A stretch of 12,423 nucleotides of DNA from a virus (IMGVR_UViG_2778261176_000013:1-12423), one strand, 5' to 3'; positions 1,966 through 10,489 are shown, numbered from the stretch's first letter. Notes: generated by a model not told the origin, from the sequence alone. Numbers and translations: made by a program.

Positions 1966-2621
1966 TGGTTTCCTCCTTTGCGAAGCTGTTCCGCACAATC
2001 CAGCAGGGCGTCCGTCGCTTCTTTCACCGTAACGATGTCGCCATCGTCCAGCCCGACAACCGTCGCGTTCTTAACGAACACCGAGCAAAGGTCATTAAAC
2101 GCCTGCGCCCGCACTTCAGCCAGGCATTTGCGAAACTCGGAAACGTACTGTTCGACGCTCATTCCCCAGCTAAGTGGACATTCATTGAATGTTTCGCCTT
2201 CGTGCTCTTCATCAGGTAGCTCTTTGGTAAAGAACTCACGTTCAATGGCGTGGAGTGTGTCAGCAAAACGACGTAAGTTACTCAAACCTGTCGTAATGGA
2301 GAATTCAGGAGCATCACATCCGACGCCCATCTGCTGATAAACGGCGGTTTTGAAGGCCTTCAGCCCCGCATTCTCCGCCGCCAACGCCGAAAACTTCTCG
2401 TGTGCCAACTTAACAGCCGCATCAGCCTGCTTAATTGACTCAATCGCTTTCTGCTGGTCTTCGGCCAGCGCATTAGCACGCACCAGTTGCACTTCCAGTT
2501 GCGTTGCCAAATCGCTGATCAGCTTTGCCACACTGCGCATATCAACGGCACCACATTCTGCTTTCAGTTCCGAAGCCATCTCATGCCCGGCGGCAACTAA
2601 CCCTTTGATATTACTTTCCAT
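1962..2621 (-). CDS. Hypothetical coiled-coil prophage protein (219 aa)
   Basis: ATG at 2621 with GAGGGT 5-6 nt upstream. N-terminal half is Ala/Glu/Lys/Gln-rich (coiled-coil-like). Stop overlaps the start of the Ea22-like gene (translational coupling). Confidence 0.65.
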   Translation of the reverse strand: MESNIKGLVAAGHEMASELKAECGAVDMRSVAKLISDLATQLEVQLVRANALAEDQQKAIESIKQADAAVKLAHEKFSALAAENAGLKAFKTAVYQQMGVGCDAPEFSITTGLSNLRRFADTLHAIEREFFTKELPDEEHEGETFNECPLSWGMSVEQYVSEFRKCLAEVRAQAFNDLCSVFVKNATVVGLDDGDIVTVKEATDALLDCAEQLRKGGNQ

Positions 2622-2682
2622 CTTTACCCTCGCTTATCCACATAACTTATTGATTACATTGATAACTAAAAAGATCGTCGAT

Positions 2683-3027
2683 TCAGAACTCTTCGATGTT
2701 CCAGCCACCACCTGTTTTCTTTGGTTTAACCGTTACCCCGATGATTCGGAACGGATACTGATCTGCGGCGACTTTGGTTTTCACCCTGGCGTCGTCGGTC
2801 CAGAAACCTTTCACTTCGTGCAGTTCCATCTCTCCGGTGGCGAGCATCACAGCGAAATCTGGCGTATAGAACGTGTTGTCAGCTAACCGCAGCTTGATAC
2901 CCTCGAATCGATACCAGGCGATTTCCCCTGCACGTTTACGCAGCTCAAGGTGCTGGCAATACGCAGATTCAGTTTTGTTCATCTGGCCTGTTTTGAGTCG
3001 ACCAAGAGCCTGTATCTGTTTTCTCAT
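2683..3027 (-). CDS. DUF1064-like protein with PD-(D/E)xK-type motif (114 aa)
   Basis: ATG at 3027 with GAGGT upstream. Contains YTPDF...ELHEVKG, a PD-x(n)-ExK arrangement typical of restriction-endonuclease-fold nucleases. DUF1064 assignment is from memory. Confidence 0.65.
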   Translation of the reverse strand: MRKQIQALGRLKTGQMNKTESAYCQHLELRKRAGEIAWYRFEGIKLRLADNTFYTPDFAVMLATGEMELHEVKGFWTDDARVKTKVAADQYPFRIIGVTVKPKKTGGGWNIEEF

Positions 3028-3115
3028 GATTTACCTCTGAGGTAATTAAAAACCACATAAGACATGAAATCAATAGAGTTTATAATATTTTGTTACCTAA
3101 CAGGTAATTATCGAG
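3028..3115 (-). promoter_or_regulatory. Second PL-like promoter-operator cassette between the P-like and DUF1064-like genes
   Basis: Minus-strand reading: operator B (3093-3107), 19-bp gap, -35 TTGATT (3073..3068), 17-bp spacer, -10 TTTAAT (3050..3045), operator A (3031-3045) overlapping the -10 and the SD of the gene starting at 3027. Shares CTATTGA and ATTACCTCA with the PL-like region. Confidence 0.5.
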
Positions 3116-3119
3116 GCGT

Positions 3120-3139
3120 AAAAAAATGCGCTATCGCGC
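3120..3139 (-). terminator. Weak tR2-like intrinsic terminator immediately after the P-like gene
   Basis: On the minus strand GCGC-GATA-GCGC, then A, then T7. The stem is only 4 bp. Confidence 0.4.
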
Positions 3140-3144
3140 TGGTA

Positions 3145-3921
3145 TTACTTGATAAATCCTGCCGCCTTTCCCCGCCTGTATTCCTCCATCAGCCACTGCG
3201 CCGGTGTTATTCCCCCAAGGGTGGCGGCGTTAGGCATGCACCCGAAACTTCGCCCTGGTGGATGGTAAACGTCTCTCCCTGTGTCCGGAGGTGTACTCAT
3301 GGGCTCTGGCTTTGCCTGTATGCTGATCACCGGATCGGGTATCTGCTGTCCGGAAGCCACCTTTTTCGCCCAATCATCGAGCAGCCTGCGCGCGTGTTTC
3401 TCAACCTCAATCTCGCTAAGCTGGCGCTGATACATTGCACGGCGGGTATCACATACGACCCAGTACATAACCGGATGTCGCCACGGGAATCTTTCGGGAC
3501 CACCAGGATATAAACTTTTTTCCTTGCTGTACCGGTGAAACTCCGCCATCACATCGTCAATGGTGACGCCAAGAACCATCTTGCTGTCTTTGCACCACTT
3601 GATGAATTGCCCAGGCGACGGCCAGAACGGAGATTCACTGGCGCGGGCGTGGCGCATACCAGCGTTAACCTGTTCCATTGTTGTGATCCCATTCTCCAGA
3701 AACGCAAGCATCCATTGCTTACGGAATTCATTAAGTTTGTTCTGCTCCCTTATGGTCGAAACGCTTGCAGGAAATGCAGCCTGTAACTGGACAAATAGTT
3801 CATTGAAAATTCTAGCAACCTGCTCCTTTTTGCCATTGCTGTCACGCCGCTCTTCATGCACAGCAACACCATGCTCACGTAAGCGATCGTACTCATTGAG
3901 AAGTTCTGGAGTTGATTTCAT
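3145..3921 (-). CDS. Replication protein P-like (DnaB helicase loader)
   Basis: [44 protein letters not shown] closely parallels the lambda P segment [23 protein letters not shown]...PFLPSPGQFVAWC as I recall it. Start overlaps the end of the O-like gene, as in lambda. Confidence 0.85.
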
Positions 3922-4723
3922 CCCACACCCCTTCTATCCAGTCAGTGTTATTCCAGTCAAGCTCATCGCTTTTCCCGGCGTTTTTTGATTTTCCCCTGAT
4001 ATGATTTACGTGCCTGGCGAATTTTTGTTCCCACTGAACCTGCGTGAACACTTTGCCCTCAGCCATCCAGTAATCCCGGAATGCAGCAAGTTCAGCAGGT
4101 GTAAATTCCGGTTCCGGCAGGGCCGTTCCCCACAGCGCAGCACGCCGTCGAAAATCCGGCGACGGATGCCAGCCATCGGTCATCGGAAATTTCCCAATAG
4201 GTTCACTCAGGCCATCCAGAAATGCAGGTTCTGCCACCTGCAACGGCGTACCGTTCGCTTCACTGGTCGGATCACTCTCGCGCGCGTGCGCTATGTGTGG
4301 GGTTTTATATATATCTTCCTCTTCCTCTTCCTCTGGTAACTCCTTTTGTAACGCTGTTGGCGTTACTTTTTGCGTTACTCGTTTTCGATGCTCTGCCACT
4401 CTTCTATTCGTAAGTGCACGTTTTTTCGATGATTCTCCATTATGTCGCTCAAAGTTTGGAAGAATTAGTTTGCCGTCATGATAAGCAAGCCATCCGACGC
4501 TAATGAGGGCGTCAGCAAATCCTGTAATAAAAGCGAGTCTATCAAGTACTCCTTTTGTAACGCTGCCAGCGTTACCGTCTATTGTTTGCTGGTCAGCCCA
4601 TGCCCATATACGAACCAGCTTTCCAAGAACAGCATCTGGATCAATACCCAGAATTTCTGCTATCTGAAAAATTTCAGGTTTATCAGGAGTGATAACTTCA
4701 ACCTTAATCCAGCTGCTTGCCAT
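3893..4723 (-). CDS. Replication initiator / replisome organiser (O-like)
   Basis: Sits immediately upstream of and overlapping the P-like gene. Start trimmed to ATG at 4723 (AGAGGGGAAA SD); the ORF-track GTG at 4741 is less likely. Has an acidic linker (EEEEEED) and contains palindromic iteron-like DNA repeats. Confidence 0.75.
4341..4383. repeat. Iteron-like palindrome cluster inside the O-like gene (candidate origin element)
   Basis: CTCCTTTTGTAACGCTG-TTG-GCGTTAC, then TTTTT-GCGTTAC. Palindrome GTAACGC/GCGTTAC at 4348-4366 plus a third half-site at 4372-4378. Adjacent to (CG)4 at 4281-4288, AT-rich TTTTATATATAT at 4303-4314 and a (CTTCCT)3 repeat. Confidence 0.5.
4560..4585. repeat. Second copy of the iteron-like element inside the O-like gene
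   Basis: TCCTTTTGTAACGCTG-C-CAGCGTTAC; 19-bp perfect palindrome at 4567-4585. The shared 17-nt left arm is identical to the copy at 4341, but the two copies fall in different reading frames of the O-like ORF. Confidence 0.5.
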
Positions 4724-4916
4724 AGGTTTCCCCTCTTGCACTCTTTAGTGCACAAGCAAATTCATTACGATGGCGGTTGGCGCTATTCATTGCACATTCA
4801 ACACATGTTCCGTTCAGAACATACCTTTCAGAGAGATGGCCGTGACGGCACCGCTTTCCTGTGAAATAGCGATTTAACCCGGCTTTTGCGGCCTCCATTC
4901 TGGTTACTATCTTCAA
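4704..4916 (-). CDS. Small zinc-ribbon protein in the cII position (64-70 aa)
   Basis: Cys/His cluster CRHGH...CVEC. Lies between the cro-like and O-like genes. Start is ambiguous: TTG at 4916 (AAGGGG upstream) or ATG at 4898. Overlaps the O-like start by about 20 nt in another frame. Confidence 0.45.
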
Positions 4917-4994
4917 TTTTTCCGCCCCTTTTTGTTATTGATATTGGCTATTTTGCACAATTGGAAAATTTGATCAACCAGATTTGGTTTTTTA

Positions 4995-5009
4995 TTACCT
5001 TTGAGGTAC
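4995..5009. promoter_or_regulatory. Isolated operator-family site downstream of the cro-like gene
   Basis: TTACC-TTTGA-GGTAC (9/10 half-site match). Preceded on the minus strand by CATATCTATT, the same 10-mer found upstream of the PL-like -35. Confidence 0.4.
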
Positions 5010-5019
5010 GAATAGATAT

Positions 5020-5043
5020 GAAAAGACCGCCGGGTGGCGGTCT
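5020..5043 (-). terminator. tR1-like hairpin between the cro-like gene and the cII-position ORF
   Basis: Perfect 8-bp stem AGACCGCC / GGCGGTCT with a 4-nt loop, followed on the minus strand by TTTT then CATATCTATT. Confidence 0.55.
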
Positions 5044-5064
5044 ACAGAGGGTTGTAGCTGGATA

Positions 5065-5295
5065 TCATGAGTAGAAGAAGTATGCCAGTTCTGCTTTTGA
5101 GCGCAGCCATTGTCTTGTTTTACAGGCTTTAAAAAGCCCATTCATCAATACTTTACCTGGCATTTTGCGCTTACCTGTTAAGTGAGTCTGGATATAGTGA
5201 CTCGTCGTTCCGGCTTCCTGTGCGAAGGCTTCACGCTCATCCGGAGTAAGTGCAAGCCAGTGCTTTTTGAAATCGAAATGTCCGTTATCGCTCAT
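5065..5295 (-). CDS. Cro-like HTH DNA-binding protein (76 aa)
   Basis: Small protein divergent from the repressor gene, with an HTH-like segment REAFAQEAGTTSHYIQTHLTGKR. It is the first gene of the operon containing O and P. Confidence 0.65.
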   Translation of the reverse strand: MSDNGHFDFKKHWLALTPDEREAFAQEAGTTSHYIQTHLTGKRKMPGKVLMNGLFKACKTRQWLRSKAELAYFFYS

Positions 5296-5449
5296 AGCTA
5301 TTGCCTGATATTTATTTCAGATAATAAATATTCACCCATAAGGTAACAAAAATCAAGGATAGTTACCCATGAGGTGCATTTACCTGTTGGGTAATATTGC
5401 TTTAAATTGAATCATCTACTGATTCATATATGAGGCGATTTTCCAGAAA
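5296..5449. promoter_or_regulatory. Divergent repressor/cro control region (OR-like) with three operator-type sites
   Basis: Three sites of the ATTACC-N5-GGTAAT family: 5332-5346 (TCACC-CATAA-GGTAA, 9/10), 5363-5377 (TTACC-CATGA-GGTGC, 8/10), 5380-5394 (TTACC-TGTTG-GGTAA, perfect). Candidate minus-strand promoter: -35 TTGTTA 5349..5344, -10 TATTAT 5326..5321. Confidence 0.6.
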
Positions 5450-6034
5450 ATGAAAAGTATCCAGGACGTCCGCAGGCAAAATCTCAACGACTTGATCGAC
5501 CGTGAATTCAATGGTGTTCAGACGCGGATGGCAGAAAAACTTGGAACTCAGGCAAATCTGGTAAACCGCTGGGCTCTTGGCAAGAAGGTTATCGGCGACC
5601 AGGTTGCGCGAAAAATTGAAGCTGCCGCCAATAAACCACGTAACTGGCTTGATATCGATCGCTCGCTTTCTCAGGAAGGTTTTCAGCCTGTCGGCCCAAG
5701 CGACATTGGTCAGCTGGCGGCTCACAACCTGGAACGCTGGATGAGCGAAAGCCGCGACCTTTCAACTCAGGGAAAACTTCACCGCGCATCCGGCGTCGCC
5801 CAGGTGACAATCAGCCGCCTGTTAAACAATGAGGTCAGTGTTTCCATTTCCACCCTGGAGAATGTTGCATCAGCATTCGGGCGTCACGGCTATGAATTAC
5901 TGATTCACCCGCACGACCCTGCGACCATCAACTATGACCGCTCGCGCTACGCATTGTTACCCGAAACCGAGAAAGCAAAGATCGAAAGTTACATTGAATT
6001 TGTCATCAACCAGAACGAAAAAAACAAACAATAA
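5450..6034 (+). CDS. CI-like immunity repressor with two HTH domains and no S24 peptidase domain (194 aa)
   Basis: Two XRE-type HTH segments (GVQTRMAEKLGTQANLVNRW and ASGVAQVTISRLLNNEVSVSISTLENVASAF). No Ser/Lys autopeptidase region recognisable. Divergent from cro across an operator-rich intergenic region and followed by a strong intrinsic terminator. Confidence 0.7.
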   Translation: MKSIQDVRRQNLNDLIDREFNGVQTRMAEKLGTQANLVNRWALGKKVIGDQVARKIEAAANKPRNWLDIDRSLSQEGFQPVGPSDIGQLAAHNLERWMSESRDLSTQGKLHRASGVAQVTISRLLNNEVSVSISTLENVASAFGRHGYELLIHPHDPATINYDRSRYALLPETEKAKIESYIEFVINQNEKNKQ

Positions 6035-6055
6035 AATCATATTTTTCAGTAAGTA

Positions 6056-6078
6056 AGCCGCCTTCTGGCGGCTTTTTT
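6056..6078 (+). terminator. Intrinsic terminator downstream of the CI-like repressor gene
   Basis: AGCCGCC-TTCT-GGCGGCT stem-loop followed by a T6 tract. Confidence 0.75.
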
Positions 6079-6084
6079 ATTGCC

Positions 6085-6187
6085 TATACTATTACCTAAT
6101 GGGTAATTTTTTTAACTCATATCTATTGACACCAAACCAAATACGCATAATTATTACCTCAACGGTAACAGACCGAGGTAACAAGTT
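6085..6187 (+). promoter_or_regulatory. PL-like early promoter flanked by two perfect operators
   Basis: -35 TTGACA at 6126-6131, with a -10-like CATAATTA at 6146-6153. Operator G (6092-6106) lies 19 bp upstream of -35; operator H (6154-6168) abuts the -10 and covers the likely start site. Confidence 0.6.
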
Positions 6188-6340
6188 ATGCAGTGGAAAA
6201 TCATCAACGGTTGGTACTGCGTTACTGCATGCGGATTCATGAGCTGGAAGTTCCGCACCTTACAGGAAGGCATTAAGTGGGCTTTCGTCAGCAAAGAAGC
6301 TCGCGATGTGGCCAACGATAACGAGATATGGGAGGGCTGA
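6188..6340 (+). CDS. Hypothetical Trp-rich small protein (50 aa), first gene of the PL-like operon; not in the supplied ORF track
   Basis: ATG at 6188 with GAGG 9 nt upstream, 20 nt after operator H. Hand translation: MQWKIINGWYCVTACGFMSWKFRTLQEGIKWAFVSKEARDVANDNEIWEG. Stop TGA at 6338-6340, 2 nt before the next ATG. Confidence 0.45.
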   Translation: MQWKIINGWYCVTACGFMSWKFRTLQEGIKWAFVSKEARDVANDNEIWEG

Positions 6341-6342
6341 TA

Positions 6343-6642
6343 ATGAACGTTAATCAGCAGAAAAATCTTCAAAAAATCATGCTGGCATTCGACAAGGACT
6401 ACCGCCTGTCAGAACAGCTATATGACCGACAAGTTGAACTGATCGAGAGCATCCGGCTTCATCAACTAGCCTCAACTTTCGACGCTGTAACAGGTAAAGG
6501 CGTTCGCCAGGAAGTACTGGAGGCCGCTAAAGACAGTCCAGAGTTCGAAGAACTGATGGATTCCTACCGGCGCGAGGCAATGGCAATTATCGCCCGCTGG
6601 GATCTGGCGGATCAGCTTGATGGACAGAGGGACGCGGCATGA
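6343..6642 (+). CDS. Hypothetical protein (99 aa) in the Gam/RacC position upstream of the exonuclease
   Basis: ATG at 6343 preceded by GGGAGGG. Stop overlaps the exonuclease start (ATGA). No family recognised. Confidence 0.6.
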   Translation: MNVNQQKNLQKIMLAFDKDYRLSEQLYDRQVELIESIRLHQLASTFDAVTGKGVRQEVLEAAKDSPEFEELMDSYRREAMAIIARWDLADQLDGQRDAA

Positions 6643-10324: not shown

Positions 10325-10409
10325 ATGCCTGCAATCTGGCATAGTCACATCCGTACAAAGGTCGGGTGGAGAGGCGTAATACAACACCCGAAAGGGGAAT
10401 ATGCCCGGA

Positions 10410-10489
10410 GCTACTGTTTGTGCTCTAGTTGACACCCGATCACCAGTTACTAACTGGTTTTCGTAACTAAAAACAAACAGGAGGTCATC
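10410..10489 (+). promoter_or_regulatory. Antirepressor upstream region with TTGACA hexamer and a 15-bp perfect palindrome
   Basis: TTGACA at 10429-10434. Perfect palindrome CCAGTTA-C-TAACTGG at 10443-10457. No convincing -10 hexamer found by eye. Confidence 0.4.

Follow-up and report, generated by a model that had tools for sequence, protein, structure and literature searches.

We analysed a 12,423-nt stretch of viral DNA (IMGVR_UViG_2778261176_000013:1-12423, hereafter the window) with a focus on eight copies of a palindrome, TTACC-N5-GGTAA, that lie at positions 3031 to 6168 and are probably operators of the phage repressor, Rep. Judged by its sequence, the window is the early region of a prophage of the genus Uetakevirus, the temperate podovirus group of epsilon15, phiV10 and SPC32H. 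Positions 2600-6400 (3.8 kb) share 99.1% identity with Escherichia phage vB_EcoP_ZX5 (ZX5) and 97-98% identity with TL-2011b, HEMP4 and phiV10, all of them Uetakevirus. The leftward genes are a gene for a 76-aa protein in the position of Cro (the cro-like gene, 5065-5295, minus strand), a 70-aa gene, a replication gene with a DnaT domain (3893-4741, minus strand), a lambda-P-like gene (3145-3921, leftward) and a DUF1064 gene (Holliday-junction resolvase-like, leftward from an ATG at 3027). Rightward run rep (5450-6034, plus strand), which encodes an SPC32H-type Rep repressor of 194 aa (a DNA-binding domain at the N terminus, and a part for oligomerisation and binding of the antirepressor Ant at the C terminus), then two small genes and a YqaJ exonuclease gene. 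The palindromes fall in four regions, A (the switch region between the cro-like gene and rep), B (after rep), C (after the P-like gene) and D (after the cro-like gene), and as putative operators we name them O_A1 to O_A3, O_B1, O_B2, O_C1, O_C2 and O_D.

A motif scan returned all eight sites at the coordinates and match levels given in the initial annotation of this DNA. Five cores are perfect (3031-3045, 3093-3107, 5380-5394, 6092-6106 and 6154-6168), against 0.01 expected in the 12.4-kb window, and none of 200 shuffles contained at least five. Two further sites match at 9/10 positions (4995-5009 and 5332-5346) and one at 8/10 (5363-5377). No sixth perfect TTACC-N5-GGTAA was found anywhere in the window, in agreement with the earlier by-eye search, and the four sites added when up to two mismatches were allowed (297, 2216, 4470 and 5171) all lie within open reading frames (ORFs) at chance level (3.4 expected). 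The eight sites themselves are all located between ORFs, as had been noted. They had been described as a 17-bp family, ATTACC-N5-GGTAAT; the TTACC-N5-GGTAA core of this description holds, whereas the full 17-mer is matched by 6091-6107 only. The outermost bases vary, and the core that is strictly invariant in all eight sites is ACC-N7-GGT. Full-text literature searches for the motif returned unrelated primer matches only.

The motif is already annotated in a relative. In the GenBank record of epsilon15 (AY150271.2), seven ATTACC-N5-GGTAAT 17-mers are entered as protein_bind 'repressor / lysogeny', among them the homologues of O_B1, O_B2 and O_C1 and sites before the terminase, portal and tailspike operons. 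A weight matrix was built from these seven epsilon15 sites only and is thus independent of the window; at a cut-off of at least 10 bits it finds seven of the eight window sites (0.52 expected). The site that it misses, O_A2 (5363-5377), nevertheless has a perfect counterpart at the equivalent position in epsilon15, SPC32H and BUCT711. More generally, all four intergenic regions carry the motif in phiV10, ZX5, Tyrion, BUCT554, BUCT711 and epsilon15 too, and the aligned regions of SPC32H carry the same operators. In each aligned region the conserved islands are the operator arms, the -35 hexamers, the -10/operator junctions and the terminators. Four sites that match perfectly or at 9/10 positions are missing from the epsilon15 record: three between rep and gp39 (L003 4885-4899, 4915-4929 and 4932-4946) and the equivalent of O_C2 (L003 2304-2318), which pairs on the downstream side with the site before the RuvC-like gene.

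A comparison of operators among prophages that carry the same repressor, which the initial annotation had proposed, was made with 76-80 IMG/VR prophages (L010-L089), all with a 100% identical Rep; the IMG/VR scan returned none with a divergent Rep, and so gave no material for covariation between the protein and its sites. The arms proved near-invariant and the spacer variable: nucleotide diversity is 0.007 at the ten arm positions, 0.162 at the five spacer positions and 0.047 at 20 flanking positions (arms vs spacer, p=3e-11). At O_C1 the arms have a diversity of 0.000 and the spacer 0.448, with 53 distinct sequences among 76 loci; the corresponding values at O_B1 are 0.000 and 0.271, and the O_C2 arms have a diversity of 0.003 (76 prophages). 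The spacers of O_C1 (0.45) and O_B1 (0.27), which are the two operators centred near -62 of their promoters, also vary more than their own flanks (0.14), and those of O_A3, O_A1 and O_B2 are nearly fixed. The variable spacers at -62 could reflect neutral drift at bases that are not contacted, or tuning of affinity.

Regions B and C share one architecture. In region B, an intrinsic terminator after rep (6055-6082, plus strand; reported by the scanner and annotated in phiV10) is followed by O_B1 (ATTACCTAATGGGTAAT, 6091-6107), the upstream operator of the PL-like promoter P_B, with its centre near -62 and an invariant T-tract behind it. P_B (TTGACA-17-AATTAT, 6126-6154, plus strand; 10/12 in the scanner) has its -35 at 6126-6131 and its -10 at 6149-6154, and CTATTGAC and ATTATTACC are invariant in the six phages aligned. 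O_B2 (ATTACCTCAACGGTAAC, 6153-6169) shares 2 nt with the end of the -10, and its centre falls on the predicted start site. In region C, read on the minus strand, a terminator-like GCGC-GATA-GCGC with a run of seven T (3120-3139, minus strand) comes directly after the P-like gene; the phiV10 record calls it a putative rho-independent terminator, GCGC..GCGC-T7 is invariant in the six phages, and its stem is too short for the scanner to have reported it. Next comes O_C1 (GTTACCTAACAGGTAAT, 3092-3108, perfect), the upstream operator of the candidate promoter P_C, again with its centre near -62. P_C (3045-3073, minus strand) would consist of a -35 TTGATT (3073-3068), a 17-nt spacer and a -10 TTTAAT (3050-3045); its TATTGA and the AATTACC junction are invariant in the six phages, and the consensus scanner passed over it because the -10 has no A at position 2. 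O_C2 (TTTACCTCTGAGGTAAT, 3030-3046, perfect), the arms of which are invariant in the six phages, overlaps three elements: the -10 of P_C, the site where transcription is predicted to start and the DUF1064 ribosome-binding site, GAGG. This Shine-Dalgarno GAGG is part of the O_C2 right arm GAGGTAA, and the leader would be only about 11 nt long if transcription started at the operator centre. The scanner also reported a plus-strand promoter in region C (AAGACA-16-TATAAT, 3059-3086), which is not conserved in the relatives and is taken as chance.

Region C on the minus strand aligns with region B gap-free at 74% identity, and the two have in common a cassette composed of an operator, 19 bp, the -35, 17 bp, the -10 and a second operator, the two operators being 62 bp apart. 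This 62-bp spacing (about 5.9 helical turns) was found in B and C of every phage and prophage examined, with the sole exception of 63 bp in BUCT711. Region D is best read from the alignment as a third copy of the cassette, with the order terminator, O_D, 17 bp, TTGATC, AAAAT, in which the downstream operator has decayed. Its intrinsic terminator after the cro-like gene (5024-5043, minus strand; 8 pairs, 6 of them GC, with a T tail) is annotated in phiV10. O_D (ATTACCTTTGAGGTACG, 9/10, 4994-5010), a single upstream operator, lies 17 bp from the -35 of the candidate promoter P_D (4950-4977, minus strand), which combines TTGATC (4977-4972) with a -10-like CAAAAT/AAAATA and was not reported by the scanner. 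Both GGTTGATC and the AAAAT of P_D are invariant in the six phages. O_D is present with at most one mismatch in 56 of the 80 prophages; the downstream operator of P_D is degenerate in the window phage, and an ATTACC half-site after the -10 is kept in epsilon15, SPC32H and BUCT554. From its position, P_D would drive the 70-aa, DnaT-domain and P-like replication genes.

The switch region A contains three sites, with centre spacings of 31 bp (O_A1 to O_A2) and 17 bp (O_A2 to O_A3). O_A1 (TTCACCCATAAGGTAAC, 9/10, 5331-5347), found in 80 of 80 prophages, lies inside the core of the leftward cro-like promoter (5321-5356, minus strand), for which the scanner gives TTGTTA-17-TATTAT (5349-5321) and TTGATT at 5356-5351 is an alternative -35. 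This TTGATT is invariant in the genus, and AAAAATCAA is invariant in the six phages aligned. O_A2 (GTTACCCATGAGGTGCA, 8/10, 5362-5378) is a conserved weak site: its arm diversity is 0.000 in 80 prophages, and its degenerate GGTGC arm is also found in Tyrion and BUCT554. O_A3 (TTTACCTGTTGGGTAAT, perfect, 5379-5395) is identical in 80 of 80 prophages. The rep promoter could not be placed with confidence; a guess from conserved columns is that a weak promoter, TTTACC-18-TAAATT, reads rightward into rep and takes the left arm of O_A3, TTTACC, as its -35. Apart from TTACC-N5-GGTAA, the switch region has no repeated palindrome.

The initial annotation called the 194-aa repressor CI-like, and this has to be revised. 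A domain search of the protein gave helix-turn-helix families only and no S24 peptidase domain, and residues 1-190 align with SPC32H Rep (PDB 5D50_A, E=4e-42), which makes it a full-length homologue of that protein. It is 100% identical to phiV10 gp40 and ZX5 ORF21. SPC32H Rep comprises an N-terminal domain that binds DNA, a middle one that dimerises and a C-terminal one for tetramerisation and Ant binding, and it is reported to be inactivated by the tetrameric antirepressor Ant and not by self-cleavage (PMC9638917, PMC9986798). According to the summary of Kim et al. (2016) in PMC9638917, tetrameric Rep binds palindromic DNA through pairs of DNA-binding domains that come from different dimers. 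The aromatic residues F187 and F190 at the SPC32H Rep interface (PMC9986798) align with Y181 and F184 of the window Rep, which by homology may likewise be a tetramer with two DNA-binding units. Across Uetakevirus relatives, Rep identity falls to 41-44% overall (41.5% for epsilon15) and to 53-54% in the N-terminal domain, and the stretch NLVNRW..G.K.(I/V)G is kept in six phages. A homologue search with the 73-aa N-terminal domain returned truncated, mostly near-identical proteins only.

In ZX5, outside the segment covered by the window, an 85-aa Ant homologue (5D50_E, E=4e-47) is encoded at L008 2089-2346 on the minus strand. Upstream of it lie a LexA-type box, CTGT-N8-ACAG (CTGTATATTTATACAG, L008 2369-2384), and a Rep-type site (ATTACCTGAAAGGTAAT, L008 2422-2438). 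ZX5 Ant is about 88% identical to SPC32H Ant, although residues 73-194 of Rep are only about 34% identical between the two phages. The ZX5 paper gives the name anti-repressor to another protein, the 231-aa ORF4, and operators are not defined in that paper.

The DNA-binding parts of the switch have distant relatives among lambdoid phages. The N-terminal domain of Rep is 33-39% identical to those of S24-type CI proteins of PseuP_224, Mcat9, pOW20-A, H-19B, mEp043 and SfV. The 76-aa protein has a match in PHROG 35, 'transcriptional repressor' (E=5.6e-13), and its homologues include SfV Cro and the proteins at the Cro position in pOW20-A and Mcat9; its own stretch AGTTSHYIQ.HLTG, probably the recognition helix, is invariant in six phages. 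By these homologies the DNA-binding parts of the switch are lambdoid in ancestry and the C-terminal, induction-sensing part of the repressor is not. The OR-region palindromes of the same CI phages are TTACC-N4-GGTAA in mEp043 (L096 1409-1465) and PseuP_224 (L090 2921-2976 and 3823), ATACC-N5-GGTAT in pOW20-A (L093 1378-1445), GTACC-N5-GGTAC in SfV (L095 1466-1484) and TTTACC-N5-GATAAA in H-19B (L091 1406-1470). It appears that this family of N-terminal domains has kept a half-site of the TACC type even though the phages and the attached C-terminal domains differ widely. The operators of 933W were also considered as those of a characterised relative, the mEp043 CI being annotated as 933W-like; they are 15-bp sites with the consensus C, G, A, A, C, T at positions 1-6 (PMC3317979), not of the TTACC type, and were set aside.

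We read the eight palindromes as Rep operators placed in repeated promoter cassettes, and we put the probability of this reading at roughly 85%. Of the earlier proposal that they serve a CI-like repressor and/or the Cro-like protein, the assignment to the immunity repressor, and probably to the Cro-position protein as well, would stand, and the CI type of the repressor does not. More specifically, each 15-17 bp site would be bound by a pair of Rep N-terminal helix-turn-helix domains; the Rep tetramer reportedly has two such pairs, so that one tetramer could hold two operators. At P_B and P_C, the operator at +1 would block RNA polymerase and the operator at -62 would add cooperativity, most economically if a single tetramer bridged both sites over a bent promoter. 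Repression of P_B would silence the rightward recombination genes, that of P_C the leftward DUF1064 and nin-like genes and that of P_D the replication genes, with a three-site switch region operating between rep and the cro-like gene. Since rep, the cro-like gene and the P-like gene are each followed by a terminator and then an operator-guarded promoter, each early unit would be repressed directly and not via an antitermination cascade. In ZX5 and epsilon15, direct silencing may extend to late operons and to the regions of ant and int. The 76-aa protein probably occupies the same sites during lytic growth, as a second binder. Induction probably proceeds by LexA cleavage, synthesis of Ant (encoded outside the window) and disassembly of the Rep tetramer, by homology with SPC32H; reportedly, work by Kim and Ryu from 2013 provides part of the basis for this route. 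We propose more tentatively, and regard as rather doubtful, that one Rep tetramer clamps each early promoter in a micro-loop that encloses the -35 and -10 between in-phase operators 62 bp apart, so that nearly all units are gated directly.

The alternative that survives best, although we consider it improbable, is that Rep has another target sequence and that the palindromes serve the 76-aa protein, or some other phage regulator, alone. The 76-aa protein and its probable recognition helix are more conserved in the genus than Rep and fit the conservation of the motif at least as well. Against this, the epsilon15 record assigns the motif to the repressor, the switch region offers no other repeated palindrome, and S24-type CI proteins with homologous N-terminal domains have the related OR palindromes TTACC-N4-GGTAA, ATACC-N5-GGTAT and GTACC-N5-GGTAC described above. 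The conservation of NLVNRW..G.K.(I/V)G in six phages likewise speaks for Rep as a binder. It is very improbable, in our estimate, that the palindromes are kept merely as parts of a duplicated promoter cassette (a -35-like TTTACC, UP-element flanks and a GAGGTAA ribosome-binding site) to which no repressor binds. Such a duplication would agree with the gap-free alignment of B and C, with the resemblance of TTTACC to a -35 and with the use of the O_C2 GAGG as a ribosome-binding site. It does not account for arms that are both invariant even at the -62 sites, which overlap no promoter element, while the 5 bp between them vary freely, nor for the single sites and the pairs 18 bp apart that stand in other contexts in ZX5 and epsilon15; in addition, two-fold symmetry is needed by a dimeric helix-turn-helix binder and not by a promoter element. 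That the palindromes act as RNA hairpins (attenuators or processing sites) is hardly credible, because, although leaders contain several of the sites and each could pair over 5 bp around a 5-nt loop, a 5-bp A/U-rich stem is weak, the upstream sites precede the predicted promoters and follow the terminators, and the arms never change and show no compensatory substitutions where a constraint on structure alone would allow covariation, which argues for recognition by a protein.

Several observations weigh against the assignment to Rep and its proposed mode of action. The 76-aa protein is better conserved than Rep (75% vs 41.5% identity to epsilon15), so that conservation alone cannot name the binder. 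O_A3, the best site of the switch region, overlaps the sole plausible rep -35 that was found, which reverses the logic of lambda. O_D stands unpaired in the window phage. Finally, 62 bp of straight DNA measure about 210 Å, compared with about 100 Å between the pairs of middle domains in the tetramer (PMC9986798), and bridging by one tetramer would therefore need strong bending.

If the sites are Rep operators, their arrangement resembles the lambda OR/OL system in part: the repressor and cro genes are divergent, three operators lie between them, and a second operator region is found at a PL-like promoter after the repressor gene. The initial annotation rightly counted three sites in the repressor/cro region and two around the PL-like promoter (TTGACA-17-AATTAT), but the layout is not the classic lambdoid one that it inferred, as the two 'OL' sites lie 62 bp apart and bracket the promoter instead of overlapping in tandem. 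The window Rep also differs from lambda CI in having no S24 self-cleavage domain. In lambda only PL and PR are repressed directly and antitermination gives access to the genes downstream, whereas the window adds operator-guarded promoters after the cro-like and P-like genes, and ZX5 has such sites before late operons too. The sites after these two genes had been singled out as extra to the lambda layout; they are indeed a non-lambda feature, yet no anomaly, for the leftward cassettes sit after terminators and the 'extra' sites would mark separately repressed transcription units with the same promoter-operator cassette. Among the ORFs scanned, none was recognised as an antiterminator of the N or Q type.

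Of the known systems, epsilon15 (AY150271.2; Kropinski et al., 2007) is closest in its operators, with the identical 17-bp motif, the same genus and the same gene order; it differs in a third site downstream of P_B and in having no O_D with at most one mismatch. The SPC32H Rep/Ant system (PDB 5D4Z, 5D50) shares full-length Rep homology, the Ant gene and LexA-type box seen in ZX5 and the aligned operator regions; it differs in that Rep is only about 34% identical outside the N-terminal domain and in that the ant gene lies beyond the window. Operators that come in pairs 62 bp (about 5.9 turns) apart, roughly on one helical face, and enclose a promoter recall the tetrameric looping repressors LacI, GalR and Rco of pLS20; for Rep itself, looping is a hypothesis. 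The C-terminal tetramerisation domain of Rep has been grouped with the looping domain of Rco, a repressor with a distance of 75 bp between its operators, and the repression mechanism of SPC32H-type Rep 'has not been extensively characterized' (PMC9986798). Direct gating of early, replication, late, ant and int units by micro-loops without antitermination would, if true, be a design distinct from that of lambda and uncharacterised for this repressor family.

Beyond the window, the motif also stands before late, ant and int transcription units of the phage genome, as seen in ZX5. The complete genome of ZX5 has 14 sites with at most one mismatch, and every one is intergenic although 91.4% of the genome is coding. 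A pair of sites 18 bp apart (L008 19625-19657) lies just upstream of the small terminase gene of ZX5, and single intergenic sites (L008 22756-22770, 8026-8040, 978-992 and 2043-2057) precede the portal operon and int and flank the ant/ash region. The exact 62-bp pair of perfect sites was found in 19 stretches in 596 Gb of species-representative genomes. Ten of these 19, all from Enterobacterales, adjoin homologues of Rep, the cro-like gene or DUF1064, and three of the ten carry two pairs about 3 kb apart, like the window. Of 5,426 complete E. coli genomes, 541 carry the immunity region (4990-6190), in most cases with an identity of 95-99% or above and nearly always on the chromosome; RefSeq labels it as 'helix-turn-helix domain-containing protein' and 'hypothetical protein' only.

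As elements, the window sites are of a kind already known: the epsilon15 record has both the motif and its assignment to the repressor, and the repressor family is structurally characterised in SPC32H. Beyond the visible annotations, the present analysis adds the three-site switch, O_C2, the fixed 62-bp cassette, the layout of a terminator plus cassette and the arm/spacer footprint, some of which primary papers may already describe. Together the putative operators and cassettes map what the prophage keeps silent, they offer a prediction of immunity groups among epsilon15/phiV10-like prophages, and the sites are defined DNA substrates for studying repression by an unusual tetrameric Rep.

Two further features were observed elsewhere in the window. 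The DnaT-domain gene holds a 28-nt direct repeat, ACTCCTTTTGTAACGCTG..GCGTTAC, at 4339-4366 and 4548-4575 (209 bp apart), each copy of which contains a 19-bp palindrome, GTAACGC-N5-GCGTTAC; from their form, these repeats are a candidate replication origin or candidate iterons. At 10360-10449 on the plus strand, there is a match to the Rfam family sRNA-Xcc1 (RF02221) with 65.2 bits against a gathering score of 53 (E=3e-10).

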